The notes: generated by a model from the letters alone, not told the origin. A DNA stretch of 61,131 nucleotides from an uncultured Candidatus Saccharibacteria bacterium (GCA_964421635.1 CAYQWZ010000007.1:1-61131), one strand, 5' to 3'; shown: positions 10,088 to 61,131, counted from the first letter of the stretch. A program made the numbers and translations.

Positions 10088-10552
10088 TCACAGCTGCACA
10101 ACCTGGTTGACTGCGTTCTGGCCAGATACGACGACGGCGGTCAGGTACCAGCTGAAGACCTGCCCTTCCGGCTCCGTCGCTCCAACCTCGATCCAGGAGA
10201 TGAGTACATCCAGGCGGTAGTTGCCTCCTGGAAGTTCGCTCATTGTGAACCGAAGCTCGTTGTTTTCCTGGTCGAAAACGGGTTCGACTTCACGGCGGTA
10301 CTCAATGAAGTAATCACCGTTGGATCCCTGGAGAACAGCCGTTGCCACCACACCATCAGTGTGGATAGCTTCCGCGTTCAGCGCGGTAACATCAAGTACC
10401 ACGCATAGAACAGCATCGAACGGACCAACGCCGTCCGTTGTGCCACCATCCGCGGTCGTTCCACCAGCACCCTCAGCGAGTGGTCCGCTACCCCCACTAC
10501 CACAGGCCACCAGCGCGAACGCCGCCAACAGAGCCATCACGAAGATAGCCAT
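10088..10552 (-). CDS. GC-rich lipoprotein, hypothetical
   Basis: MAIFVMALLAAFALVACGSGG signal peptide and lipobox when started at ATG 10552; the track ORF extends to 10591. Strongly GC-rich. Confidence 0.5.
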   Translation of the reverse strand: MAIFVMALLAAFALVACGSGGSGPLAEGAGGTTADGGTTDGVGPFDAVLCVVLDVTALNAEAIHTDGVVATAVLQGSNGDYFIEYRREVEPVFDQENNELRFTMSELPGGNYRLDVLISWIEVGATEPEGQVFSWYLTAVVVSGQNAVNQVVQL

Positions 10553-17435: not shown

Positions 17436-19691
17436 ATGGATTCAAGCAAGCTAATTCCTCGCTTTGCTATTGTTGCCAGTACACAAAAACTGGTTGACCG
17501 TTTTTTGTTTACCGGCTCACAACCAACAAATCCTACTAAAAAGCTCAACTTGCTTTACGCCGTTGAAGTAACCCGCCCTTGGTTCCCCTCTTCTCGTTTA
17601 GTCCCCACTATTACCAATGTACTGTCTGAGCGCTTTAATACCTTGGCTAAATCTTCTAATCCGCTTAAAAGCTTCGAGGCTACTATCAAAAACATAAACG
17701 AAGAGCTCTACGCTATTACTGAACAGGGCGAAACAGATTGGCTCGGGCACTTAAACGCACTCTTAATTTTAGTCGATGGCAACGAAATTCACATCTCACA
17801 GACTGGCACCGCTCAGGCTTATTTATTTCGAGCTAGAAAAATTAGCCAGGTAACTGAAACATCAGTGGGCGATTCGGAGCCTCATCCTTTAAGCACTTTC
17901 TCGAACATTATTTCGGGCCAGCTAGCAGAGGGTGATCGTATGGTTTTCGCTAATCAAGATTTATTCTCAATAATTTCGCTAGATCAAATTCGGGGTGCAG
18001 TTAGCGAACAAACCCCATTTTTAGCCGCCAATCAAATAGTTAAATCTACTAAGCGCTCTAAAATAACCTCTATTTCCGCCATTATTTTAGCCATTGAAAA
18101 CGCCGCTACTTGGGAAACCGCCGGCGAGGAACCATTCGTCATTAACTTGGAAGAGACGGTGCAAGGATGGCATAAAATTGTTTGGAAAAATACTAAGCCA
18201 ATATTAAAGAAAGCCAGAAGTATTAGTAAAAAAGCTTGGAAGGCAAGTGTAGTTGGGGCTAAAAAAGCTCACAGTAAGTGGCAAGAAAGCTACGGACCAA
18301 AAACCCAATCGGCCCTAAAGTCTGGGGCTCGGTCTATTTCTCATTACGCTGCCAAAGCAAAAGGCTATACCAAAGATAAATTTTCAGACAAATCTGTTCA
18401 AGGCAAAACCCTGCAATCTTTCGTTAAAGCTGAGCAATGGTTGACTGACTTATTAAAACCTCTTAAAAAATCTGCCGCACCAATTTTGAAGAAATTAAAC
18501 CAAGTCGACAGAAAGCTAGGAGGATTGATTAAAAAACTCAGCCCTTATGTTACAGGGAAAAATTTTCGTTATGTTTTAATTTCAGCCGCTATTTTATTTG
18601 TGGCTATTACCGCCATTACGGTTCGTAATCGTCACAGCATTCAGGTAATCGCCAATACTCAATCAGAAAATTTGAGGCTTTTAGAAGAAACTAATTTGCT
18701 GGCTGGGCGCACAGATGAAGCTATTAAATTAAAGCAAACCATTGAAGCCCAAAAATTATTAGCTCAGGCAGAAGAGAAATTGAATCAGGTTAATCCTACT
18801 AACTCAGATGAAGAGACACGCAAAGACTCCCTTTTACAAATTATTCAAGAAAAAGGAGATAAACTAACTAACACTCAAAGAGTAAATGCGACTACTAGCT
18901 ATAAAGCGCCTGAAAACACAGATATCATAGCAGTTTCAAATAGAGGAATTTACGCTCTCAATTCTAAAAGTAACGCCGGTCGATTCTTATCTCGAGATTT
19001 GGCCCAATCGGAAATTCAGTTCACACTACCCTCGGCCGATGATAAACCAATTAGCGCTTTTTATTCATCAGAGCTAGACTCCGTCTTTATTACCACAGCT
19101 AATAAAAAAGTATTCACTGCTCGTTTGGAGAACGACAGCATCACCATTTCGCAAAAAGAAAATCCTTTAGGAGATTTCGCCGACAGTACAGATATCGCCA
19201 CTTTCGGTACCAACCTGTATCTTCTAGATTCAAACAGTGGATTACTCTGGAAGTATCCGCCATCTGGGGATAACTTTAGTCGCGGCATCAACCAAGTTGA
19301 GCCAACAGATATTAACTTAAAGACGGCTATTGATATTGCTATAGACGGATATATTTATTCTTTACATAGTGACGGATCACTTAAAAAACTATTGCGAGGC
19401 AAGCCTGAATCAGACTTTTCTGTTGCTGATATGCCAGAAACTTCCTACTCTAGAAAACTAATAGCTCTATCTACCAACGAGAATATTGAATCAATCTATC
19501 TTTTCGACGCAGGGGATAGTAGTAAATCTATTCCAACTGCCAAGGTAATTGTGCTCAACAAAGACGGATCCTTCTTAAAACAAATCGCTATTGACGAACA
19601 GTTGTCTAATATTAAAGCTTGGCAGATGCAAGCTGACGGTTCGCGTTTTTGGATATTGAACAGCAATGAGATTGTTGAATATAAAATCTAA
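17436..19691 (+). CDS. membrane protein with N-terminal PP2C/SpoIIE-like fold region and C-terminal beta-rich (propeller-like) domain
   Basis: LNALLILVDGNEIHISQTGTAQAYLFRA ... GDRMVFANQDLF resembles the PP2C core. Central TM (YVLISAAILFVAITAITV). Repetitive beta-strand-like C-terminus. Confidence 0.5.
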   Translation: MDSSKLIPRFAIVASTQKLVDRFLFTGSQPTNPTKKLNLLYAVEVTRPWFPSSRLVPTITNVLSERFNTLAKSSNPLKSFEATIKNINEELYAITEQGETDWLGHLNALLILVDGNEIHISQTGTAQAYLFRARKISQVTETSVGDSEPHPLSTFSNIISGQLAEGDRMVFANQDLFSIISLDQIRGAVSEQTPFLAANQIVKSTKRSKITSISAIILAIENAATWETAGEEPFVINLEETVQGWHKIVWKNTKPILKKARSISKKAWKASVVGAKKAHSKWQESYGPKTQSALKSGARSISHYAAKAKGYTKDKFSDKSVQGKTLQSFVKAEQWLTDLLKPLKKSAAPILKKLNQVDRKLGGLIKKLSPYVTGKNFRYVLISAAILFVAITAITVRNRHSIQVIANTQSENLRLLEETNLLAGRTDEAIKLKQTIEAQKLLAQAEEKLNQVNPTNSDEETRKDSLLQIIQEKGDKLTNTQRVNATTSYKAPENTDIIAVSNRGIYALNSKSNAGRFLSRDLAQSEIQFTLPSADDKPISAFYSSELDSVFITTANKKVFTARLENDSITISQKENPLGDFADSTDIATFGTNLYLLDSNSGLLWKYPPSGDNFSRGINQVEPTDINLKTAIDIAIDGYIYSLHSDGSLKKLLRGKPESDFSVADMPETSYSRKLIALSTNENIESIYLFDAGDSSKSIPTAKVIVLNKDGSFLKQIAIDEQLSNIKAWQMQADGSRFWILNSNEIVEYKI

Positions 19692-41843: not shown

Positions 41844-42200
41844 TTACTGTGTTGTGCTGGTTCCAGCCACCGCCTCTTGTTCATCTAAGTACTCGACATC
41901 ATCACCAATAGAGACCATCTCTTCTCGCACTTCACTCTTGGCGATACGATCTAGCGTTTTAGCTCGCGCTTCTAATAGTTTCAGTTCATTTATCTCTTGT
42001 TCGACACTGCCCTTTTCTTCTCGCAATTCAGTTGATTCATAAATAGCAGTCTCTCGGCCAATGCTTTGCGTTAAGCTCACTAAGGCCAAAACTGCCACTG
42101 CTGAGATCGCTAAAACCTTTCCAATTGTAGGCCCAATTTTAACCCGTCGTCTGACTGTGCGACGACGCCTGCGTCTATTTACTTTATATCGACTCATCAT
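41844..42200 (-). CDS. FtsL/DivIC-like small division protein
   Basis: R-rich N-terminus, single TM, short coiled coil; position between mraZ and ftsI. Confidence 0.5.
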   Translation of the reverse strand: MMSRYKVNRRRRRRTVRRRVKIGPTIGKVLAISAVAVLALVSLTQSIGRETAIYESTELREEKGSVEQEINELKLLEARAKTLDRIAKSEVREEMVSIGDDVEYLDEQEAVAGTSTTQ

Positions 42201-42203
42201 AGT

Positions 42204-42635
42204 TTATAATCCTAAATCATTTAAATCTTCAGCTATAGTTGCTACATTCTTCTCCATTTTTTTCTGATAATTACGCCATCTGTTCTCGTCCCATATTTCT
42301 ACTCGGCTATAAAGGCCGGCAAAAACCACATTCTTTTTTATGCCACCAAACTGCCGAAGGTATTTTGGTAGCATCATGCGGCCCTGTTTATCTATCTCTA
42401 TATCCATTGCTCCAGCTAGCATTAAACGGGCAAAACTTCGAGCACTGCTTTTACTTAACGGCAAAGCGGCAATGCGCTCCGCAATTTTGGCCCACTCATC
42501 TTTGGTGTAAAAGAACAGTGAATCGTCTAGTCCACGGGTTACAACCGCACCTTGACTAAACTGTTTACGAAACTTGGCTGGCACCTGCACCCTCCCTTTC
42601 TCATCTACGGTATGTTGAAACTCTCCTATAAACAC
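42204..42635 (-). CDS. mraZ: transcriptional regulator MraZ
   Basis: MFIGEFQHTVDEKGRVQVPAKFR and a second DKQGRMMLP SpoVT/AbrB-like repeat. Confidence 0.9.
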   Translation of the reverse strand: MFIGEFQHTVDEKGRVQVPAKFRKQFSQGAVVTRGLDDSLFFYTKDEWAKIAERIAALPLSKSSARSFARLMLAGAMDIEIDKQGRMMLPKYLRQFGGIKKNVVFAGLYSRVEIWDENRWRNYQKKMEKNVATIAEDLNDLGL

Positions 42636-42652
42636 CTTTGATTGTTAGTTAT

Positions 42653-42698
42653 CCACAAAGTTATCCACTTTTCCCCACTTTTCCCCACTACCTGCCAC
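42653..42698 (-). promoter_or_regulatory. putative MraZ operator: five GTGG(G) direct repeats at about 10-nt phasing
   Basis: Plus-strand CCAC at 42653, 42665, 42675, 42685 and 42695 (spacing 12, 10, 10, 10), between the promoter and the mraZ start. Confidence 0.55.
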
Positions 42699-42706
42699 TG
42701 ACTCCC

Positions 42707-42735
42707 ATTTTACGGATACTTTAGCCCACGGTCAA
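42707..42735 (-). promoter_or_regulatory. dcw (mra) promoter
   Basis: Minus strand TTGACC-17 nt-TAAAAT. Confidence 0.6.
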
Positions 42736-42830
42736 CGCCATTTATGGGGATAAATATTTTTTTAAATTAAGCCGTTTTGTCATCTGTTTTTTGTATAATA
42801 ATAAAGAGGGAGAGATATTGGCTCTACCTC

Positions 42831-42859
42831 TTGACATTGGCACCATTTTATGCTAAGGT
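42831..42859 (+). promoter_or_regulatory. sigma70-like promoter of GC-rich cassette
   Basis: TTGACA-17 nt-TAAGGT, followed by an approximately 170-nt hairpin-rich leader. Confidence 0.5.
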
Positions 42860-43037
42860 AAACGCGCCAATCAAGGTTGGTGCCCAAACACATAAGGGGC
42901 GCACCTTAACAACTGAGCCTGTACAGGTAGGCCTGTTGCAGGATTGTTCAAGACTGTCCGCATTTGTTACGCCGCGGACAAACCTGTAGCCCCAACCTGG
43001 GGCAAACCCCCTTCGTGGGGTAAGAAGACGTGCAAGA

Positions 43038-45119
43038 ATGAGTAGCATCAGCATCGAGTTCGGTGGTAAGGTCTATGACCTCGCCGAACTTCAACGAGAT
43101 GTCATCAGCCGCAGCACCGCCGAGCTGCGTGCAGGAGGTCTCAGCCGTAGCGATGCCGTCGAGCATCGCCATGAACTGTTCACCCTTCGACAAACTCTGC
43201 GCGACCCGCACGACGAGCTAGTCGCGCAGATCAACGCCAAGAAGGTCGAGATCGAAGCCAAGAAGGCTGCGGTCAGGCGCGCCAGCACTAACAAGCCGGT
43301 TCGCCAACAGGAGCTGGCCGGTTTGGTCGCCGAGAAGCAGCTGATCGAGCAGGACATGGCCGCCATCACGGCGGTCATCGACCAGCTCGAGGAAGCTCTC
43401 CGTGAGCTGGCCATCGTCGACGACAAGGGCGACTACCTCAGCACCGTCCCCGACGACCAGTTCTCCACCAGTGACGGCGAGAACAGTGACGACGACGAGT
43501 TGCTGGACAGGCGTGAGTATCGGGAGCTCAACGAGCACCTGACCGTTCTGCGCTTCCCCAAAAGCGGCGTCGTTTACGCTCTGTATTTCCCCAGCTACAT
43601 GGGGAACCCTCACGAGTTCAACTCCCAGCAAGGTCAGAGTCTGATCATGATCGGTCAGAAGCAGGATAACGGTGAGCTTCCGCTTACCGCTGCCCATGAC
43701 CTGGTGGTGTTGCTGCTGCACCACACGGAAGATGAGCAAGACGGGGGCATCGCGGAGAACGTCGCCGAAGCCATCGTCGGCTACCTCATCGACGGTATTG
43801 ACCTGACCATGGACACGGTCGGGTTGGACACCGCCACACAGATGAGCCCTCGAGTGCAACAGTGGTGTGTCGCGCACGAGGAAGATCTCGAGGTCACGCA
43901 CACATCGGAGCGCTTCCGTCGTGTGTTGGTGCCCGAAGGGTACCGAGCCATCGAGTCGACCGAGCGTATTTGCGAGCCTCGGTACGGTTTCTTGGTCTGG
44001 CTGCTCAGCCCCGAAGACCAGGAAGATCTGCTCGCGAGCCTCGGGCTCAACGAGTGGCCTGAGGACGGCCTCTGGCCGGATTCGCCTCAGCAGTCGCCGC
44101 AGCGAGACAGTCGCCGCGACGAGCAGGTCAACAGCAACCGCTCGCACACTCGTGACGAGTGGCCGTCGCGACCCGCTGCTACCCACCCGGCTCAGCCGGT
44201 TCCGGTGAGCAGCAACGACAGCAGTAGCGACGACGAGAAACCCGACGAGATCCCCCCCGAAGAGCTGATCGTCGACATCACCAACACGGTGGTCGTGACA
44301 CACAGAGACCCGAGCTACAAGTTCACCGCGAGGGTCTTCAAGCTGGAACCTGGAGCGCGAGTGGTTGCTGACTACCATGTCAACTCGCTGGCGCGCTATG
44401 GAACGAGTCGGCCCAACCCGGATGTCCGAGGCACACGATGCATCAGCATCGCCGAGCCCTGCGTCATCGTGGTCGACGAGGTCAAGGGGTTCGATCCGGC
44501 AGAGGGTATGTTGGATGTTGCCAACATCATCTGGACCCTCGACTGGCAGGATGGAGACCACCACCTCATCAGCGGTCCCATCGCACTCAGCCCCGAAGGA
44601 ATGGAGCGGGCGACCGTATCGCTCAACAGCTCCTGCTTCCCCCGCTGGCCTCAGTACTTGGGTGATGAGTCTAGCATCACCCCGGTGATTCGCTGGGATA
44701 ACCAGCTCGTGGCATGTCTGGAGAGGCATGTCAAGAACACTCTTCGGGAGGGTGTTCCCAGCGCGAAGTTCCTGGTCGGTTGGGTGAACCCCGAGCAGGC
44801 GAAGCTCCACCCGCCACCGCCGCGTGACGAGCAGTACGACGATCGTCCGCAACCCACCACCCGTGGGCAGCGTGACGAGCAGCTGAGCCCCCCCGACGAG
44901 ATGACTCCCGCGGAAGCCGACGCGATCATTCGCGCGGCCGCCGTTCGTGAGAGTCATCGACAGGCCACCCAGCGGCAGCAGCCGCACGACGACGGTGGTC
45001 GCTACCAGCGCCGCGATGAGCCCAACGGTGGCAACGGTGGCTTCCGCGGCAGCAACGACAACAGCGGTCGCCCCCAGCGCCGGGGCGCCCGCCCCCGCCC
45101 CACCGACCGGTCGCGCTAG
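43038..45119 (+). CDS. large hypothetical protein (very GC-rich): coiled-coil N-terminus, acidic segments, R/G/D/Q-rich tail
   Basis: 693-aa ORF with the promoter upstream and a terminator downstream on the same strand. GC3-dominated codons. Tail is ...GGNGGFRGSNDNSGRPQRRGARPRP. No catalytic motif recognised. The start is uncertain (weak SD). Confidence 0.55.
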   Translation: MSSISIEFGGKVYDLAELQRDVISRSTAELRAGGLSRSDAVEHRHELFTLRQTLRDPHDELVAQINAKKVEIEAKKAAVRRASTNKPVRQQELAGLVAEKQLIEQDMAAITAVIDQLEEALRELAIVDDKGDYLSTVPDDQFSTSDGENSDDDELLDRREYRELNEHLTVLRFPKSGVVYALYFPSYMGNPHEFNSQQGQSLIMIGQKQDNGELPLTAAHDLVVLLLHHTEDEQDGGIAENVAEAIVGYLIDGIDLTMDTVGLDTATQMSPRVQQWCVAHEEDLEVTHTSERFRRVLVPEGYRAIESTERICEPRYGFLVWLLSPEDQEDLLASLGLNEWPEDGLWPDSPQQSPQRDSRRDEQVNSNRSHTRDEWPSRPAATHPAQPVPVSSNDSSSDDEKPDEIPPEELIVDITNTVVVTHRDPSYKFTARVFKLEPGARVVADYHVNSLARYGTSRPNPDVRGTRCISIAEPCVIVVDEVKGFDPAEGMLDVANIIWTLDWQDGDHHLISGPIALSPEGMERATVSLNSSCFPRWPQYLGDESSITPVIRWDNQLVACLERHVKNTLREGVPSAKFLVGWVNPEQAKLHPPPPRDEQYDDRPQPTTRGQRDEQLSPPDEMTPAEADAIIRAAAVRESHRQATQRQQPHDDGGRYQRRDEPNGGNGGFRGSNDNSGRPQRRGARPRPTDRSR

Positions 45120-45176
45120 CAAGCAACACTAGTCAACACCCCCTTCGAACGCGGATCCAAACCGCGTTCAACCAAA

Positions 45177-45206
45177 AGTCCCCCAGCTCCGGCCGGGGGA
45201 CTTTTC
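45177..45206 (+). terminator. intrinsic terminator
   Basis: agtccccc ... gggggact stem followed by TTTT. Confidence 0.65.
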
Positions 45207-45224
45207 ATTTACTCTAAATAACTG

Positions 45225-46631
45225 CTAGGGAACTAACTTCTTAATAAAAAACTCTTCTAATTTATTTATTTCTACTCGCTCCTGTTTGAGCGTATCGCGA
45301 TCGCGCACCGTAACCGCTTTATCGTCTAAAGATTCAAAATCGACTGTCACACAAAAAGGAGTACCAATTTCATCTTGCCTTCTGTAGCGTCGTCCAATTG
45401 AGCCGGCTGCATCGTACTGAACGGCCCAGCGCTTGAGCAACACTTTATAAATATCACCCGCAATCTCGGGCAGTTGATCTTTCTTCACTAAAGGCAAAAC
45501 AGCTACTTTTATAGGGGCAATAGAAGGATGCAAACGCAATACCTTCTCCCCTTTCTTACGGCCATCCTTCTCATCTTCAGGAATCTCTTCGTAAGCGTCT
45601 ATTAAGAAAGTCAGAAAGGCTCGTTCAACTCCCATTGATGGTTCAACTACTTCAGGCAGATAGCGCTCATTGATTACTTCATCAAAATAAGTTAAATCTT
45701 TCTTACTATGCTTTTGGTGCTGCTTCAAGTCGTAATCTCCACGACGGGCAATTCCCTGCAATTCAGACCAACCAAAAGGATAATTATATTCAATATCGGT
45801 GGCGGCAATTGCATAATGAGCTAGCTCATCTTTATCATGCTCGCGCAACCGTAGATTCTCTTTTTTCACTCCATGATTTTGAAACCAAGTCATGCTTTCT
45901 TGAATAAAGTAATCGTACCATTCAGATGCAGAGCGCAGATGCCCTTCAATAGAATTAGTTTTTTTAGATAAGATATTGTCTGGCTCGATAAACCACTCAA
46001 TTTCACACTGTTCAAACTCTCGAGTGCGAAAGATAAAGTTCCCTGGCGTTACTTCATTTCTAAAAGCTTTACCAATTTGGGCAATGCCAAACGGCAACTT
46101 CTGCCGCGTAGTATCAACTACATTTCTAAAGTTAGTAAAAATTCCTTGCGCCGTTTCTGGCCGCAAATAAGCCAATGACCCTTCATCTTCAACTGGCCCT
46201 ATAAAAGTCTTGAACATTAAATTAAACTGCTTGGGCTCCGTCAAAACTCCACCACAGTTTGGACACTGTGTTTGGTCGGCTTTATTCTTTTTGACTTCAC
46301 CATACTGCCCTTCTAGTAAGTGATCGTAACGAAAACGGGTGTGACAATCTTTACATTCTACCAGCGGATCGGTAAAACCAGATTCATGCCCCGAGGCCTG
46401 CAATACTTCGCGTCGAGTAATAATAGCCGAATCTAGTGGCACAACAGATGGTTCAGAATGTACAAACCGGCTCCACCAAGCATTCTTAATATTTCGTTTC
46501 ATCTCAGCTCCCAGTGGACCGTAATCCCAAATAGCGCCCGTTCCTCCATAAATTTCGGCTGAAGGATAAACAAAACCTCGCCGCTTAGCCAGCGATACTA
46601 TTGGTTCTAAATTACGCAAAGTTGGTGCCAT
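45225..46631 (-). CDS. glyQS: glycine--tRNA ligase (dimeric class II type)
   Basis: RRGFVYPSAEIYGGTGAIWDYGPLGAEMKRNIKNAWW N-terminal signature; class II motifs; about 460 aa. Confidence 0.9.
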   Translation of the reverse strand: MAPTLRNLEPIVSLAKRRGFVYPSAEIYGGTGAIWDYGPLGAEMKRNIKNAWWSRFVHSEPSVVPLDSAIITRREVLQASGHESGFTDPLVECKDCHTRFRYDHLLEGQYGEVKKNKADQTQCPNCGGVLTEPKQFNLMFKTFIGPVEDEGSLAYLRPETAQGIFTNFRNVVDTTRQKLPFGIAQIGKAFRNEVTPGNFIFRTREFEQCEIEWFIEPDNILSKKTNSIEGHLRSASEWYDYFIQESMTWFQNHGVKKENLRLREHDKDELAHYAIAATDIEYNYPFGWSELQGIARRGDYDLKQHQKHSKKDLTYFDEVINERYLPEVVEPSMGVERAFLTFLIDAYEEIPEDEKDGRKKGEKVLRLHPSIAPIKVAVLPLVKKDQLPEIAGDIYKVLLKRWAVQYDAAGSIGRRYRRQDEIGTPFCVTVDFESLDDKAVTVRDRDTLKQERVEINKLEEFFIKKLVP

Positions 46632-55893: not shown

Positions 55894-57450
55894 ATGCAGC
55901 TATTCCCCATGGACGACGCCTATATCCATCTGGTGTACGCTCGCAATATAGCCAATTACGGCCAGCTGACTTTCAACTATCCCACACTCGACACTGGCAT
56001 TGGCACCAGCAGCATTCTGTGGACACTCTTGTTGGCTGGCAGCATTGAGTTAGGCTTATCACCTATATTGGCCGCCCAAATGTTGGGCGCGCTGGCCTAC
56101 TTTTTGACCATCGCGCTATCTTACTGGCTAGCCAAATCGGCATACGAAAAGATACAAAGAAAACCCGTTGTTTGGCAGCCCATTTTGATTGCCATGCTGG
56201 TGGCTTGTTCTGGCAATCTCATTTGGTTTAGTGCCAGTGGCATGGAGACAATGCTCTGGCTCGCTCTTGGGTTATGCGTAATAAAGAGCTATCTCAACCG
56301 GCGCTTCACTTTGCTAGGAGTTTTTGGCGGTCTTCTGCTTCTCACTCGTATTGAAGGATTACTCTTGCTAGCAACAATTAGTCTTGTCGATGTTTGGCAA
56401 CGAAAAGGCGTTAATGCGCAATTGATTGGCTCATTGGCATTGGCTGGTTTAATCTTAACTCCATGGCTTGGCTATACTTTTGCCCATACCGGCCACCTGT
56501 TGCCCACTACTTTTGCTGGCAAAAGTCAGGCTCACATTCAGGCCGCTCAAACAATTAGCGGTGGATTTGCTCGATGGCTGATTTATCCGTCCGTTAGTCT
56601 TGGCTACTTCATCGCTTTCGTTTTTGGTGGCGTTTATCTGCCCGGCCCAAAACTGGCAATTCCTGGGCAGCTAGGGGCGCAAATAGGTGGTCTAGCAATC
56701 CTTGCATTCATAGCGCTGGCTTTAACACTTTTTGTTAGTTGGGCTGCTGTTAGGAAAATCAAATCCGAGTCGAAATATTTTCAAGAGTTTTGGTTGATAA
56801 TCGCTGGTTGGTTAATTTTTCATAATCTTGCTTACTGGATTGCTCTGCCCACTCCTGGCACTGCTAGCCGGTATCAGGTTTTGAATCACTGGGCGCTTTG
56901 GGTCCTAGTAGGATTCGGACTGACCTGCATCGCTAAAACAAAACAACGCCTGTTTATTCCTTTGTTTGTGGCGGCGGCACTCGTAAACTCGTTTTACTGG
57001 CAACAGGTTTACAATAGTAACCTGCGGCATATGAGCCAAGTCCGCTTAACCGCCGCCACTTGGGTAAACAAAGACCTGCCCCGAGATGCAGTGGTGGCTG
57101 TTCATGATATCGGTGCTACTGGCTGGATAATGCGGCAATCTTGTTTCGATTTAGGAGGATTGATTGACGAGGCTTTCAACGAATATCGGCAAGCTGGCAG
57201 ACTAACCGACTTGCTACGAGAACGCCAAGTTCAATTCATAGTTTTGCCGACCAAGCACAGTAGTGAGAACCAAGCCATCTTCGACTACCGCCAATCGCTT
57301 GGTCTAATCGATCAATCCTTCATTCTCAAACCAATCAAACATTTTGAAAATGACTACGACGATTGGCGATTCGGCGCTCTGCCAACTTGGAACGCTCTGC
57401 CCGCCGTTACTATCTATAAGCTTCAATTTCTGGAGCCCACCCCACCCTGA
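55894..57450 (+). CDS. polytopic membrane protein, GT-C-type glycosyltransferase-like
   Basis: N-terminal MDDAYIHLVYARNIANYG motif, as in GT-C/ArnT-like or arabinofuranosyltransferase-like proteins. About 12 TM plus a soluble C-terminal domain. Confidence 0.5.
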   Translation: MQLFPMDDAYIHLVYARNIANYGQLTFNYPTLDTGIGTSSILWTLLLAGSIELGLSPILAAQMLGALAYFLTIALSYWLAKSAYEKIQRKPVVWQPILIAMLVACSGNLIWFSASGMETMLWLALGLCVIKSYLNRRFTLLGVFGGLLLLTRIEGLLLLATISLVDVWQRKGVNAQLIGSLALAGLILTPWLGYTFAHTGHLLPTTFAGKSQAHIQAAQTISGGFARWLIYPSVSLGYFIAFVFGGVYLPGPKLAIPGQLGAQIGGLAILAFIALALTLFVSWAAVRKIKSESKYFQEFWLIIAGWLIFHNLAYWIALPTPGTASRYQVLNHWALWVLVGFGLTCIAKTKQRLFIPLFVAAALVNSFYWQQVYNSNLRHMSQVRLTAATWVNKDLPRDAVVAVHDIGATGWIMRQSCFDLGGLIDEAFNEYRQAGRLTDLLRERQVQFIVLPTKHSSENQAIFDYRQSLGLIDQSFILKPIKHFENDYDDWRFGALPTWNALPAVTIYKLQFLEPTPP

Positions 57451-57487
57451 CTTGCTGAAAGTTAGGGTTTTTTACTTCTACAAAACC

Positions 57488-57522
57488 AAAAGGTCAGGCA
57501 ACCTATGGCAGCCTGACCTTTT
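57488..57522. terminator. bidirectional hairpin terminator
   Basis: AAAAggtcaggc ... gcctgaccTTTT between the convergent GT-C-like gene and tRNA-Ile. Confidence 0.7.
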
Positions 57523-57598
57523 GGTGGGTGCGGATGGACTTGAACCATCGACCTCTACATTATCAGTGTAGTGCTCTAACCAGCTGAGCTACGCACCC
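57522..57598 (-). tRNA. tRNA-Ile (GAT), CCA encoded
   Basis: Minus strand GGGTGCG-TA-GCTC-AGCTGGTTA-GAGC-A-CTACA-CTGATAA-TGTAG-AGGTC-GATGG-TTCAAGT-CCATC-CGCACCC-A-CCA. Confidence 0.9.
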
Positions 57599-57629
57599 AA
57601 AATTTTCTTATTTTTTTATATTTGCGTAG

Positions 57630-57688
57630 TTATCAGTGTAGTGCTCCCTGCCTGCCGGCAGGCAGGTAACCAGCTGAGCTACGCACCC
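57630..57688 (-). pseudogene. duplicated 5' half of tRNA-Ile (positions 1-38) carrying the 20-nt palindrome in the D loop
   Basis: Identical to the intact gene from G1 through the anticodon loop, except for the insert between GGTTA and GAGC. Diverges immediately after CTGATAA. Confidence 0.7.
57647..57666. repeat. 20-nt perfect palindrome CCTGCCTGCCGGCAGGCAGG, copy 2
   Basis: Identical to 14729-14748. Removing it restores the tRNA-Ile D-loop sequence exactly. Confidence 0.9.
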
Positions 57689-57713
57689 CTAATACGCATT
57701 ATAGCTTAGCAAA

Positions 57714-58774
57714 TCAAATTCGACCTGTCCACAAAAACATCCGCATTTTTATCTTTAGCCTAAATGTATTAGCCCAAGCCGCTTGCGCATGATAAGAGCT
57801 TAACACTTGTTGTTTTTTGGGACCATTGGGCAGGTTTTTAACTTTCCAACGCCACTCGCTTATTGTGCGGCGACGCAATAAAACATACTCTGGCCGAACA
57901 ATAAAACCCACAAAATCAATGCCATCTGCTACCGGCCGAATAAGCTGTTTTTGGGGGTGAACATGCATCTGAAGTTGGGCAGCGACAAATTTAGTGATAG
58001 TACGACGGATAGTTTCCAGATATGAATAACTTTTGCCCAAAATCACAAAATCGTCCACATAACGAATATAGTACTTTATTTTTAGAGTATGCTTAATAAA
58101 TTGATCGAGCCGGTCCAGGTATACATTGGCGAAAAATTGGGATGTAAGATTGCCAATAGGCAAGCCTTTACCTTTGGCTACTGTAAACAGCGATTTATCC
58201 GCTGGCAATTGAGCAAAGAGACTAGGGCAACTTTGAATTTTGGGTGGGATATCGCGGGCACAGTCGTGAAAAATGATTGTTTTAGTTAACCATAAAATTT
58301 CGGCATTTTTAGTCTTTTTGGCTACTAAATTATACAAAATATATTGGTCAATGGAAGTGAAGAAGCTCTTAATATCCATTTGTAGATAATACGCGTCGTG
58401 GTGCCCCCTACTCTCTCTATCTCTCTCGATTTGGTTGGTGAATTGTTGCAAACGCCGCATAGCGTGGTGGGTGCCTTTGTTTTTACGACAGGCCCACGAA
58501 TCGTAGATAGATGGTGAACTACTCGATCACGAAAATCGGCGGCAAAGATTTCGCGTACTTTTGGTTTTCGGACAATAAAAGCAATTGAACGACCCGGCCG
58601 ATAGGTTCGATCGCGTAATTGCTTCTCCAAAGTAAGCAGGTTTTTTTCTAGATTTTCCGCAAACTGCAGATGATAAAACGACCGGCTTTTGCGTTTCCGA
58701 CAGTTAATATAGGCGCGGTATAAATTAGCAAAATCAAAATAGGTGGGTGACGAAATATGATCAGAAAGAGACAT
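57714..58774 (-). pseudogene. DGR-type reverse transcriptase, split by a frameshift with a short deletion near 58510
   Basis: The N-terminal frame reads MSLSDH...PKVREIFAADFRDRVVHHL. The second frame reads IYDSWACRKNKGTHHAMRRL ... LPIGNLTSQFFANVYL ... YIRYVDDFVILG (IGxxxSQ and YxDD). About 12 residues normally found between HH(A)L and (F/Y)DSYA are missing. Confidence 0.75.
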
Positions 58775-58787
58775 TTGTACCTTGTTG

Positions 58788-58915
58788 CCTGACACAGCGT
58801 ATGTAGTTAGTATTGGAATACTTGGTGTTGTTGTTCGTGTTGCCGTCATTCAGGTTCACATAGTACGCGTTTGTACTATTGTTGCTCGTGGCCGACCAAA
58901 AGTTGTTGGAGGGCT
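58788..58915 (-). repeat. DGR template repeat (TR)
   Basis: Lies directly upstream of the RT start. AAC/AAT-rich; conceptual reading is PSNNFWSATSNNSTNAYYVNLNDGNTNNNTKYSNTNYIRCVR. Homologous to 59463-59587. Confidence 0.7.
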
Positions 58916-59051
58916 AAATGCTACCGACTTCAATCACTCCACCAACCAGCCACGTCAGGCGTGGTAGGTTGATCTGAAACTATCCTCTCAATAATTGTCT
59001 GACCTGAGGGCGGTAGCCGTAACAAGGCAGATAGCATTCCCGATTATTAGC

Positions 59052-59426
59052 TTAAGCAAGATAATCGGCTCTTACACAAATGCCTTTTTCTGACCACTGA
59101 CACCATTTCTCAAATTGTTTTGATATATCTACTAATTGGGTAAAGAAATGTTGATAACTCTTCAAACTCATAACTTTTAAGTCTTTTAACATTCTCGCTT
59201 TGAATTTTACTTTTTCCACCAACATAAAACCGTCTTTTAGCAAAAGTGTTTTGTTTAGACTGCTATTGGCTTCAATAACCACATCTAGCATGGAGTTAAG
59301 TAATTGTTCTATTTGCATGGCCAACCCATATTTATAATCTTTAGGAAACCCTCTGGCAAGCTGAAAGAAATATATATTTAGGTCGTAGACGCTTTTATAA
59401 ATTGGCAAATGTTCGTAACGAGCCAT
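59052..59426 (-). CDS. avd: four-helix-bundle protein, DGR accessory variability determinant (Avd)-like
   Basis: 124 aa; MARYEHLPIYKSVYDLNIYFFQLARGFPKDYKYGLAMQIEQ pattern of the 23S-rRNA-IVS/Avd family. Sits between the target gene and TR. Confidence 0.75.
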   Translation of the reverse strand: MARYEHLPIYKSVYDLNIYFFQLARGFPKDYKYGLAMQIEQLLNSMLDVVIEANSSLNKTLLLKDGFMLVEKVKFKARMLKDLKVMSLKSYQHFFTQLVDISKQFEKWCQWSEKGICVRADYLA

Positions 59427-59459
59427 ACATAATAATTTAATAATTAAATAACCAAATTG

Positions 59460-61131
59460 TTACCTGACACAACGAACGTAGTCCGCAACCGTCATAGCGC
59501 TGTGGTTCGTGTAGCCACCACCTAAGTAGACGCCGTACGCACCCGTGCCACCGTTCTGCGTCAACGACCAGAAGTAGTAGGAGGGCTGGGTCAGATTCCA
59601 GTAAGCGCCGTCAATATAGGCTTGCTGAAGCTCTGTTTGGCTCGGCAGACGCCAACCATCACCCCGCTCAGAGCAGAGCTCGCTGGCAGTCTTACCACCC
59701 ACCGCCACGCTATTAGTATTGGTAGTAGAAGTAAAGGTAATAGTATCGTCACCCGTGCCGCTGGTTTTAGTAAGGGTACCACTCGCTTCAGGACTACCCG
59801 TACCCGTAGCGTATATATAACTACTGCTACTGTGGTCAATTGTCACAGTAAAAGTTTGGCCGTTATTGGTATAGGTGGCACCCGCCGAAGCGCTAGCTGA
59901 TGGTGAGAGATTAAACTTCATACTGCCGTCCCATGTCCATGTCGAACCACTAGAGGCGGCAAACTCCACCGTACCGGCGTTGTTTTTCAGGTAGTTGCTC
60001 CAAGTCAAACCGGTTCTGGGGTCGTAGCCGCCTCGCCCCGCTAGCGCGTCATCACCTGTCACTGGCGTGTCGTTGGCCGTCCAAGTTAGAGAGCAGTTAT
60101 CTGTTTCGTTCGCCGAGCCACTGCCAGCGTACCAGTCTTGCGTAGCGCAGGCGCCGGCCGGCGTTAGGTCGGTTACCGTGCCGCTGCCTGTAATTTGGCT
60201 GCCGTCATTGCTCCAGGCTACCTTGCTTGTCGCCACGTCGGCTGCGCTCGCTACTGTACCGGCTCCTGCTAAGGGATAGCTTGCCGAGGGGTACTCTCCT
60301 GTTAAACCAACTCCGAAAGCCGTTCCACTTTTGACTGTGCCAACGGAAAGATTAGTAGCGTTGTAGGTGCCGGAACTAGTGGCAGTGGTTAGTACAAAAC
60401 TTTGGTCTTCATCACCGTAGGTGTAGCCAACCACAGCATTGCCGGCAATACCGAAAATGGTTACTCCACTAACAATGTTGCCCGCGATAAGGTCGGTATC
60501 TACGACAGATAAGGTTGTAGCGGCGTAGTAGCCGGCTGCTACTGTTGTGCTACTTGCAGACAAAGTCTGGGTATCCATAGTTCCTGTAACAGAAGAGCCA
60601 TCTACCCAAGCCACTAGACCTGAGAGCAAATCACCGGCGGTAGCGGTACCGGTACTGGTATTAACCACATTGCTGTTGCCCACTACACCAAATATAGTTT
60701 TGCCAGAAAGAATGTTGCCTGTAACTAAGTCGGTGTCAACTGTTGCCAGAGTGGTAGCAGCGTAGTAACCAGCAGAGACGGTGTCGTTGGCAGCCGAGAG
60801 AGTATTAGTAGAGATAGTACCGGTAATTTCAGAACCATCTACCCAAGCCACTAGACCTGAGAGCAAATCACCCGCGGTCGCGGTACCGGTTGAAGTATTA
60901 ACCACATTTGAGTCACCCACTACTCCAAAGATGGTAGCACCACTTAAAATATTACCCGTAATAAGATCTGAATCCACCGCTGTTAGCGTAGTCGCGACGT
61001 AGTAACCAGCCGAGACTGTTGTGCTGTCTGCTGAAAGAGTGTTGGTAGAGATGGTGCCGGTAACGGCCGAGCCATCTACCCAGGCGATCTTGCCAGATAG
61101 CAGGTCACTGGCTGTAGCTGTTCCTGTTGAA
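59460..61131 (-). CDS. DGR target protein (5'-truncated by window end): tandem 79-aa repeats + C-terminal CLec/FGE-like VR domain
   Basis: The frame is open to the window edge; the track start at 60977 is an internal GTG. The C-terminus is ...GWRLPSQTELQQAYIDGAYWN...YVRCVR. Confidence 0.75.
   Translation of the reverse strand, partial: STGTATASDLLSGKIAWVDGSAVTGTISTNTLSADSTTVSAGYYVATTLTAVDSDLITGNILSGATIFGVVGDSNVVNTSTGTATAGDLLSGLVAWVDGSEITGTISTNTLSAANDTVSAGYYAATTLATVDTDLVTGNILSGKTIFGVVGNSNVVNTSTGTATAGDLLSGLVAWVDGSSVTGTMDTQTLSASSTTVAAGYYAATTLSVVDTDLIAGNIVSGVTIFGIAGNAVVGYTYGDEDQSFVLTTATSSGTYNATNLSVGTVKSGTAFGVGLTGEYPSASYPLAGAGTVASAADVATSKVAWSNDGSQITGSGTVTDLTPAGACATQDWYAGSGSANETDNCSLTWTANDTPVTGDDALAGRGGYDPRTGLTWSNYLKNNAGTVEFAASSGSTWTWDGSMKFNLSPSASASAGATYTNNGQTFTVTIDHSSSSYIYATGTGSPEASGTLTKTSGTGDDTITFTSTTNTNSVAVGGKTASELCSERGDGWRLPSQTELQQAYIDGAYWNLTQPSYYFWSLTQNGGTGAYGVYLGGGYTNHSAMTVADYVRCVR
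59463..59587 (-). repeat. DGR variable region (VR) at the 3' end of the target gene
   Basis: Encodes PSYYFWSLTQNGGTGAYGVYLGGGYTNHSAMTVADYVRCVR-stop. Aligns with TR apart from one codon indel. Confidence 0.7.
60504..61131 (-). repeat. in-frame tandem coding repeats, 237-nt (79-aa) period, at least 2.6 copies in the window
   Basis: Units are VD(S/T)DL(I/V)TGNILSG.TIFGVVG.SNVVNTSTGTATAGDLLSGLVAWVDGS..TGT..T.TLSA...TV.AGYYAATTL. Nearly identical nucleotide blocks occur at 60547-60765 and 60781-61002. Confidence 0.85.

Follow-up and report, generated by a model that had tools for sequence, protein, structure and literature searches.

The closest described relatives of the locus analysed here, a diversity-generating retroelement (DGR) at positions 57714..61131 of a contig from an uncultured Candidatus Saccharibacteria bacterium (GCA_964421635.1 CAYQWZ010000007.1:1-61131), are the DGR of Bordetella phage BPP-1 and the DGR loci of Thiohalocapsa PB-PSB1. 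The window is the entire contig (61,131 nt), whose end falls inside the repeat-rich target gene. The BPP-1 element has the gene order mtd-avd-TR-brt (TR, template repeat; brt, the reverse transcriptase gene). The same order, target, avd, TR and reverse transcriptase (RT), was read on the minus strand of the window from the open reading frame (ORF) list and the sequence, and it likewise includes a bAvd-family accessory protein. The Bordetella RT (bRT) is the best solved relative of the window RT, with the motif 4 signature IGxxxSQ and YxDD in common. In both systems a C-type-lectin-fold domain has the variable region (VR) at its C-terminus, and the ends of TR and VR are nearly the same, differing by one base. 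The window locus differs in that its RT is interrupted by a deletion, its resident TR is evidently not cognate, no hairpin follows the VR, and the TR-to-RT spacer is 14 nt, so that a spacer RNA element, if there is one, has to extend into the RT coding sequence. BPP-1 is a phage, whereas the window locus is chromosomal in a bacterium of the Candidate Phyla Radiation (CPR).

Thiohalocapsa PB-PSB1 carries one complete DGR locus plus loci with the machinery missing or pseudogenised, and the VRs of these degenerate loci match the TR of the complete locus at all non-adenine (non-A) sites, with variation in these VRs still present in natural populations (Doré et al., 2024, PMC10907252). Trans action on non-adjacent DGR targets is known (PMC5758913), and Avd, TR and brt work in trans experimentally (cited in PMC5758913). 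The window locus resembles the degenerate PB-PSB1 loci in that its VR matches the TR of another locus. It differs in its host (a small-genome CPR bacterium as opposed to a 7.95-Mb purple sulfur bacterium), in having no transposons seen at the window, and in that a non-cognate TR of its own is still there, next to an RT that is nearly intact. For PB-PSB1 a closed metagenome-assembled genome showed the loci to be co-resident, whereas for the loci described below co-occurrence and composition make this plausible. The situation is thus known from PB-PSB1; the window locus is apparently the first degenerate in-trans case noted in a CPR genome.

The DGRs of CPR/Patescibacteria, reportedly described by Paul and co-workers in 2017, share with the window locus a cellular, chromosomal location, a target tip of the DUF1566/Lcl_C type and a single adjacent target per cassette. 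DGRs are well known in CPR genomes, e.g. DGR clade 2 (Roux et al., 2021, PMC8144416). That CPR DGRs often show non-A changes has been put down to lower fidelity, and VRs belonging to another DGR were excluded when non-adjacent targets were called (Wu et al., 2018, PMC5758913). CPR surveys score the adjacent TR/VR pair; at the window, in contrast, the non-A changes are due to a neighbouring TR that is not the template.

All four parts of the window locus are homologous to those of DGRs, which places it in that family, yet it is not a self-sufficient cassette. Below, locus 2 denotes the window cassette (TR2, VR2, avd2, RT2) and locus 1 a second DGR found on contigs L095 and L005 (TR1, VR1, RT1). 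The explanation that we favour, and consider reasonably probable, is that locus 2 is a degenerate DGR locus whose VR is diversified in trans by the complete sister DGR. The initial annotation had described a canonical target-avd-TR-RT cassette. The minus-strand order and all quoted sequences were found in place, and the assignment to the DGR family stands, but the cassette is not canonical: the RT is a pseudogene and the TR does not pair with the VR as a cognate template would.

Template repeats and variable region

TR2 (58788..58913, minus strand) consists of 42 A-rich codons, PSNNFWSATSNN...YIRCVR, with a translation exactly as first annotated; the triplet after it is CAA, as opposed to TAA after the VR. 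VR2 (59463..59585, minus strand) forms the end of the target gene with 41 codons, PSYYFWSLTQ...YVRCVR, and the stop TAA. The ends of the two repeats, GTGTCAGG-TAACAA in VR2, which resembles an initiation of mutagenic homing (IMH) sequence, and GTGTCAGG-CAACAA in TR2, differ by one base. Local alignment of TR2 and VR2 spanned 131 nt with 45 mismatches. Mismatches were found at 25 of 43 A sites and 19 of 80 non-A sites (19-20 within the 131 nt), together with a 3-nt indel, TR2 being one codon longer. A computed TR/VR alignment had been named in the initial annotation as a refuting test; an alignment exists, but its differences are not adenine-specific, and in this stricter sense the resident pair fails the test.

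TR1 from L095 is equal in length to VR2 and mismatches it at 22/43 A sites and only 2/80 non-A sites (78/80 match; Fisher p=1.6e-10). The own pairs of two relatives are strictly adenine-specific: TR1 vs. VR1 differ at 18/43 A sites and 0/80 non-A sites, and the TR and VR of L001 at 15/46 and 0/77, respectively. Both repeats could be called in 16 sister loci, whose own TR/VR pairs had 0-2 non-A mismatches. The clade is, as far as these repeats indicate, normally strictly adenine-specific, with the window as an outlier. The TR of L001, the template of an unrelated relative, differs from VR2 at 26/46 A sites and 17/77 non-A sites. Because TR2 fits VR2 no better than this unrelated TR (19/80 vs. 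17/77 non-A mismatches), whereas TR1 leaves 2/80, the alignments show TR2 not to be the template of VR2, which bears the adenine-mutagenesis footprint of TR1. The whole window and all fetched loci were scanned for a VR matching TR2 at non-A positions, and only TR2 itself was found. The change of Asn codons to Y/G/H in the VR, ascribed in the initial annotation to adenine mutagenesis from the adjacent TR, was thus not produced from TR2.

These comparisons bear directly on the conventional interpretation, in which locus 2 is an autonomous DGR whose adjacent RT and TR diversify the adjacent VR, the non-A differences being due to a low-fidelity CPR RT. The gene order and the presence of all motifs are what this interpretation predicts, frequent non-A substitutions have been reported for CPR DGRs (PMC5758913), and the mismatches between TR2 and VR2 show a weak A-bias (p=2e-4). 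The bias is uninformative, since any A-rich homologous TR gives it; with the L001 TR it is equally weak (p=1e-4). The interpretation is further contradicted by the low non-A counts of the sister loci, by the almost perfect account of VR2 that TR1 provides, and by a 40-nt frameshifting deletion in RT2 that is present in three assemblies (see below). We regard it as refuted by these tests and as very improbable.

An adjacent TR/VR pair in the right gene order can therefore be the wrong pair, which matters for DGR annotation. The non-A differences at the window are a sign of a VR templated by another locus, not of low RT fidelity. Surveys that score only adjacent pairs, or exclude the VRs of other DGRs, would misclassify such loci and may overstate non-A mutagenesis in CPR DGRs.

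Reverse transcriptase

The RT start codon lies at 58774, 14 nt past the TR, and the DGR hallmarks are present as LPIGNLTSQ (motif 4, 58163..58137) and YVDD (58061..58050). Motifs and spacing agree with the DGR-type RT that had been annotated, but the RT is not one gene. It is divided into two ORFs in different frames, 58774..58509 and 58508..57714. The N-terminal part (58509..58774, minus strand) has 88 codons with motifs 1-2 up to ...FRDRVVHH, after which the frame runs out of register to a stop at 58325. The C-terminal part (57714..58508, minus strand) has 264 codons plus stop, begins with IYDSWACRKNKGTH..., and includes motif 4, YVDD and the thumb (Pfam RVT_1, E=3.8e-13). MAFFT alignment with L001 and L095 places a single gap at the junction 58508..58509 (58509|58508), a 40-nt deletion with the microhomology ATCT. 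The deletion takes out 13 codons, LYNYLSPIFExxF, between ...RDRVVHH and IYDSWACRKxKGTH, and shifts the frame. The 13-aa gap was also seen in alignments with bRT (8ub7) and with 9 close homologues, and among the lost residues are three that 95% or more of 103 full-length homologues share. We concluded that RT2 is a pseudogene. The lesion looks recent, judging from the rest of the RT, which keeps all columns conserved at 95% or more bar two, both also missing in the nearest relative L001. The deletion is not an assembly slip, since the sequence across it recurs with 100% identity in contigs of other assemblies (L088/L098 from ERZ27248897 and JGI Ga0268279; L094 from ERZ27248922). In contrast, locus 1 encodes an intact in-frame RT of 360 aa (P0001), which is 68% identical to the window RT.

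When the two parts of RT2 were joined, the best solved relative was bRT 8ub7 (E=1.8e-35, 126 bits), to which the C-terminal part also aligns; group II intron and retron RTs scored ∼1e-9 (∼40 bits). The NCBIfam group II RT model reached 84.6 bits against a cutoff of 300, all NCBIfam group II and retron models stayed under cutoff on RT2, and no DGR-RT model in NCBIfam fired. The DGR clade call is made from PDB and homologue searches, which speak against the group II or retron origin that had been raised as a refuting alternative. A functional split RT, re-initiating at the Met of MDIKSFF, was considered and rejected: conservation of this Met is limited to the sub-clade (the 103 homologues have M in 62, L in 37, A in 3 and G in 1), and the window lesion removes core fingers residues.

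Mosaic structure and co-occurrence of the two loci

The target body and RT of the window are ∼75-85% identical to L001 and ∼60-75% to L095. Sliding identity analysis detected an L095-like patch of ∼204 nt at 59376..59579 (minus strand), which begins at the first diversified VR codons, runs past the VR end GTGTCAGG TAACAA and across the intergenic spacer, and takes in ∼17 codons at the start of avd. The patch is 0.91-0.99 identical to L095 (∼99% outside the diversified sites), with 0.6-0.7 on both sides; the 87 nt from 59462 to 59376 have one mismatch to L095. Retrohoming of TR1 cDNA can explain the VR and the 5' boundary of the patch, whereas the 3' flank implies a separate recombination between the two cassettes.

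In the sequence of events that we propose, gene conversion between paralogous cassettes would have copied a segment from the VR end via the spacer to about avd codon 17 into locus 2, which would have given VR2 the 3' recognition sequence of locus 1. Thereafter the Avd1/RT1/TR1-RNA machinery would reverse-transcribe TR1 with errors at adenines, and the cDNA could retrohome in trans into VR2 as well as into its own VR1, with a 5' crossover only a few bases into the TR homology. In this way a second repeat-rich protein would have its C-type-lectin-like tip diversified further although locus 2 has no working RT.

A mosaic of this kind might instead be an assembly artefact: two co-occurring strains or cassettes could have been joined into a chimera, or the deletion could be an assembly error. 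Both cassette types occur in the same samples, the contig ends within the repeat-rich target, and the ERZ27248922 assemblies break near the TR and VR, all of which would be compatible with such an error. However, contigs that were recovered separately (L088/L098, L089, L091 and L094) show the mosaic and the deletion with 100% identity, and to either side of the patch identity to L095 drops to 60-70%, without the long shared k-mers that a double switch would call for. An artefact is therefore very improbable, and a chimeric assembly was rejected.

Exact Avd2 protein sequence was found on four other contigs, three of which are identical to the window over the overlap. The fourth, L090, comes from sample ERZ27248922, as does L095, and has six differences from the window in 1279 nt. 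All are in the VR (within 59482..59534), five of six at TR1 adenines and three of six at TR2 adenines. Ongoing diversification of VR2 is possible on this evidence. VR2 does not duplicate the VR1 found in that sample, and VR1 itself is identical in two samples. P0001 and the window markers (Avd2, the RT2 C-terminal part and ArgRS, the arginyl-tRNA synthetase) were found together in ERZ27248922, ERZ27248936 and SRR8437277. The tetranucleotide correlation of the L095 flanks with window segments was 0.96-0.97, as high as within the window, vs. at most 0.91 for other CPR contigs. The L095 and window contigs have no genes in common outside the cassette and no duplicated single-copy marker. The L095 cassette is flanked by a methyltransferase/hypothetical cluster on one side and a Fic gene on the other, and the window cassette adjoins a tRNA-Ile gene; since their genomic positions differ, locus 1 and locus 2 are separate loci rather than alleles. 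A single genome carrying both is plausible but unproven.

The same data can be read as those of a dead relic, in which locus 2 is inactive, VR2 and its 3' flank came from an L095-type DGR of another co-occurring organism in one or two recombination or horizontal transfer events, and VR2 is static today. The broken RT, the mismatched TR2, the unproven co-residence with locus 1 and the VR shared by three of the four other contigs suit a relic, and the identity of VR1 in two samples indicates that turnover is not fast. A static VR2 is difficult to reconcile with L090, which departs from the window in the VR only, predominantly at TR1 adenines, and matches it throughout the remaining ∼1150 nt. As VR2 does not copy the VR1 of the same sample, two independent transfers with identical boundaries would be needed. 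Moreover, the composition of the L095 flanks fits the window. We judge a relic, the main competing explanation, to be unlikely, though clearly less so than an artefact.

Diversification of VR2 in trans by locus 1 also has points that weigh against it. The shared 3' flank needs a recombination step beyond retrohoming. L090 is the single alternative VR2 sequence recovered, and its six differences include one non-A site. Two non-A mismatches of VR2 to TR1 remain, one of them at the 5' edge, and no hairpin beyond chance, and thus no Bordetella-type hairpin, was found after VR2 (z=0.10). No contig linking locus 1 and locus 2 was found, and the case for one genome is made up of co-occurrence in three samples, composition and the lack of conflicting marker genes; exact-sequence look-ups bias which contigs could be seen. 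If trans diversification is correct, a very small CPR genome seems to keep two large DGR-diversified surface proteins on one working RT, in keeping with the view that a variable surface is important for these epibionts.

(GA)n tracts in sister reverse transcriptase genes

The RT of the nearest relative (L001-L004, four samples) is split too, but elsewhere than RT2, directly after a 21-nt (GA)n run coding for ERERERE (L001 7213-7233), where one repeat unit fewer would restore the frame. An in-frame version of this RT was not found in the protein database. Although the RT is out of frame in all four samples, the TR/VR pair of L001 is adenine-specific (15 A-site and 0 non-A differences, as above). 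Seventy further loci of this RT clade were fetched from JGI metagenomes. The GA tract sits at a fixed position in the sister RTs (∼nt 364 from the start; L100-L166), between KGTH and MDI[KR]SFF (motif 2 to motif 3), and is 6-50 nt long; in L095 it lies at ∼10364-10386. The reading frame of 63 RTs was determined from the anchor-to-anchor distance: 26 are in frame (14 with a tract of at least 11 nt) and 37 out of frame (18 at +1 and 19 at +2), so that the three frame states are about equally common (∼1:1:1). Tracts of 11-50 nt were counted as 14 ON vs. 37 OFF. In tblastn searches nearly all out-of-frame loci gave two high-scoring segment pairs, one per RT half, with the frame switch at the tract and both halves open. 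TR/VR pairs are equally clean in out-of-frame and in-frame loci.

Near-identical contigs from different samples have a single indel, located at the tract. L109 and L135 align over 2170 nt with 0 mismatches and have tracts of 26 and 28 nt; L114 and L142 over 2109 nt, also with 0 mismatches (33 and 41 nt). L147 and L148 align over 7557 nt with one mismatch (46 and 30 nt), and L115 and L138 over 9161 nt with four (36 and 46 nt). Consensus tract lengths such as these come from short-read assemblies and should be taken with caution. In a control set of 80 more distant DGR RT loci from GTDB genomes, no GA tract of at least 10 nt was present and a frame break occurred in 1/80.

A GC hairpin of 4-6 bp usually lies 3' of the tract and is followed by a T-run, inside the RT ORF and before the ATG of MDIKSFF. 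Examples are L111 (2260-2283), where a simple terminator scan flags the hairpin/T-run site, and L109, L114, L123, L132 and L149, with the hairpin directly 3' of the GA tract. The stems carry compensatory changes (GGCGC/GCGCC, GGGGC/GCCCC, GGCC/GGCC and CGGC/GCCG). This evidence consists of individual folds, the MAFFT alignment not being structure-aware enough for a formal covariation count. Because the hairpin persists despite variation in the encoded amino acids, selection at this site appears to act on the nucleic acid.

Long repeat tracts that toggle the frame are characteristic of simple sequence repeat (SSR) contingency loci, such as the CT repeats of H. pylori oipA and the phase-variable genes of Neisseria and Haemophilus. 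The sister RT genes, not the window, resemble these loci in having a long perfect dinucleotide tract in the ORF, a tract length that differs between otherwise identical sequences, and ∼1:1:1 frames. They differ in that the switched gene is a mutator RT, not a surface or restriction-modification gene, and in the GC hairpin and T-run after the tract; the hosts are uncultured CPR bacteria and the system is known here from sequence alone. In the sister loci the (GA)n tract looks like an SSR phase-variation switch of the mutator RT. The long uninterrupted frame-toggling tract that defines such switches is present in the sister loci and absent from the window copy, where RT2 has an interrupted in-frame GA remnant (GAGAGAGA-T-AGAGAGAG, i.e., (GA)4-T-(AG)4) at 58411..58427 (minus strand) and lacks the hairpin that relatives have after the tract.

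A wider proposal, for and against which we see the balance as even, is that the conserved hypermutable (GA)n tract, hairpin and T-run form a contingency switch that stochastically turns the mutator on and off; at the window the switch would have been fixed first, with the tract interrupted and the hairpin lost, and the RT then deleted, with the VR kept evolvable by the sister DGR in its ON frame. No report linking DGR RTs with SSR phase variation was found in the searchable literature. If the switch is real in vivo, DGR mutagenesis would itself be phase-variable, and the tract finding may matter more than the window locus.

Two further observations were made on the clade. Extra in-frame insertions of ∼90-150 nt occur in the KGTH-MDIKSFF linker of L100, L105, L106, L115, L116, L126-L130, L133, L137, L138, L144, L151, L156 and L159, some with inverted repeats (e.g. 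...TGTCATTCCGAGC...GAGGAATC... and ...TTGTTCGAG...GAGAACTAC...GTTCTCG...); this linker seems to be a hotspot for small insertions. L150 (JGI Ga0172362_10129776, 1-1875) carries another cassette of the clade with a badly mismatched TR/VR pair (∼24 A-site and ∼24 non-A differences) and an RT frame break that sits away from the GA tract. No TR matching the L150 VR was present among the fetched loci, and L150 may be another degenerate locus.

Target protein and Avd

The 3' part of the target gene (59460..>61131, minus strand) comprises 556 codons and is open to the contig end. Its C-terminus, ...GDGWRLPSQTELQ...PSYYFWSLTQNGGTGAYGVYLGGGYTNHSAMTVADYVRCVR-stop (...GWRLPSQTELQ...YVRCVR-stop), reads as first described. 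The protein is built of ∼79-aa (237-nt) repeats, followed by a beta-rich domain and a C-terminal Lcl_C/DUF1566 C-type-lectin-like domain. Pfam Lcl_C scored 31.1 bits on the target, below its cutoff of 34.9, and PF07603 was present in 93/93 target homologues. An AlphaFold2 (AF2) model of the last 209 residues had a pLDDT (predicted local distance difference test) of 93 and showed the beta-rich domain and then a C-type-lectin-like tip, the fold that structure prediction had been expected to give. In Foldseek searches the best PDB match was the C-terminal domain of Legionella pneumophila Lcl (8q4e; probability 1.00, TM 0.47 over the target), followed by Bd2740 and many classical C-type lectin-like domains. 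From the AF2 model, the Foldseek matches and PF07603 in the homologues, the VR codes for the C-terminal part of the C-type-lectin-fold domain. The tip had been called CLec/FGE-type (C-type lectin/formylglycine-generating enzyme). The C-type lectin part is confirmed, while the domain is of the Lcl_C/DUF1566 type and not FGE-type. The resemblance to Lcl (PF07603) has its limits, with low sequence similarity (23% over 70 columns), a score under the Pfam cutoff and another N-terminal architecture.

The target is 75-77% identical (aa) to the 751-754-aa targets of L095 and L001. As such full-length relatives start with a hydrophobic N-terminal segment, the target is probably a surface-exposed repeat-rich protein. 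A search with the target C-terminus returned no window-type VR variants and adds nothing on VR turnover. A 751-aa ORF at 17436..19691, equal in length to the L095 target, was considered as a second target and rejected, being unrelated and without a Pfam match.

The 124-aa Avd-like gene of the initial annotation corresponds to avd2 (59052..59426, minus strand), located beside the TR, and this position in the cassette is conserved in L001 and L095. Avd2 matches Pfam bAvd (PF22296) at 40.2 bits, borderline against the cutoff of 40, and NCBIfam DivGenRetAVD at 48.6 bits, under the cutoff of 80. It is 63% identical to the Avd of L095 and 48% to that of L001.

Genomic context

The remainder of the contig is ordinary chromosome, with genes for penicillin-binding proteins (PBPs), ArgRS, RecJ and a class II aminoacyl-tRNA synthetase. 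The named relatives of the ArgRS are 100% Patescibacteria (Woesebacteria, Berkelbacteria and WWE3) at just 42-43% identity, which supports a CPR host, as annotated, and suggests a deep lineage. A scan of GTDB species genomes gave distant RTs only (at most 49% identity) plus one 63% fragment. Downstream of the RT lies tRNA-Ile(GAT) (57522..57598, minus strand), the sole match in an Rfam scan of 57000..61131, which detected no intron or msr-msd RNA.

A partial copy of this tRNA, its 5' half through the anticodon loop, was observed at 57630-57693 (minus strand), between the RT stop and the intact tRNA. The copy is broken up by a perfect 21-nt palindrome, CCTGCCTGCCGGCAGGCAGGG, and is the same in L094. 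It has no Rfam match and no significant fold (z=-1.7), and may be a remnant of integration or rearrangement. Elsewhere in the window, the region 42000-46000 has a GC content of 52-55% vs. a background of ∼40% and contains long ORFs on both strands, 43038-45119 (plus strand, 693 aa, without a Pfam match) and 43218-45122 (minus strand, 634 aa).

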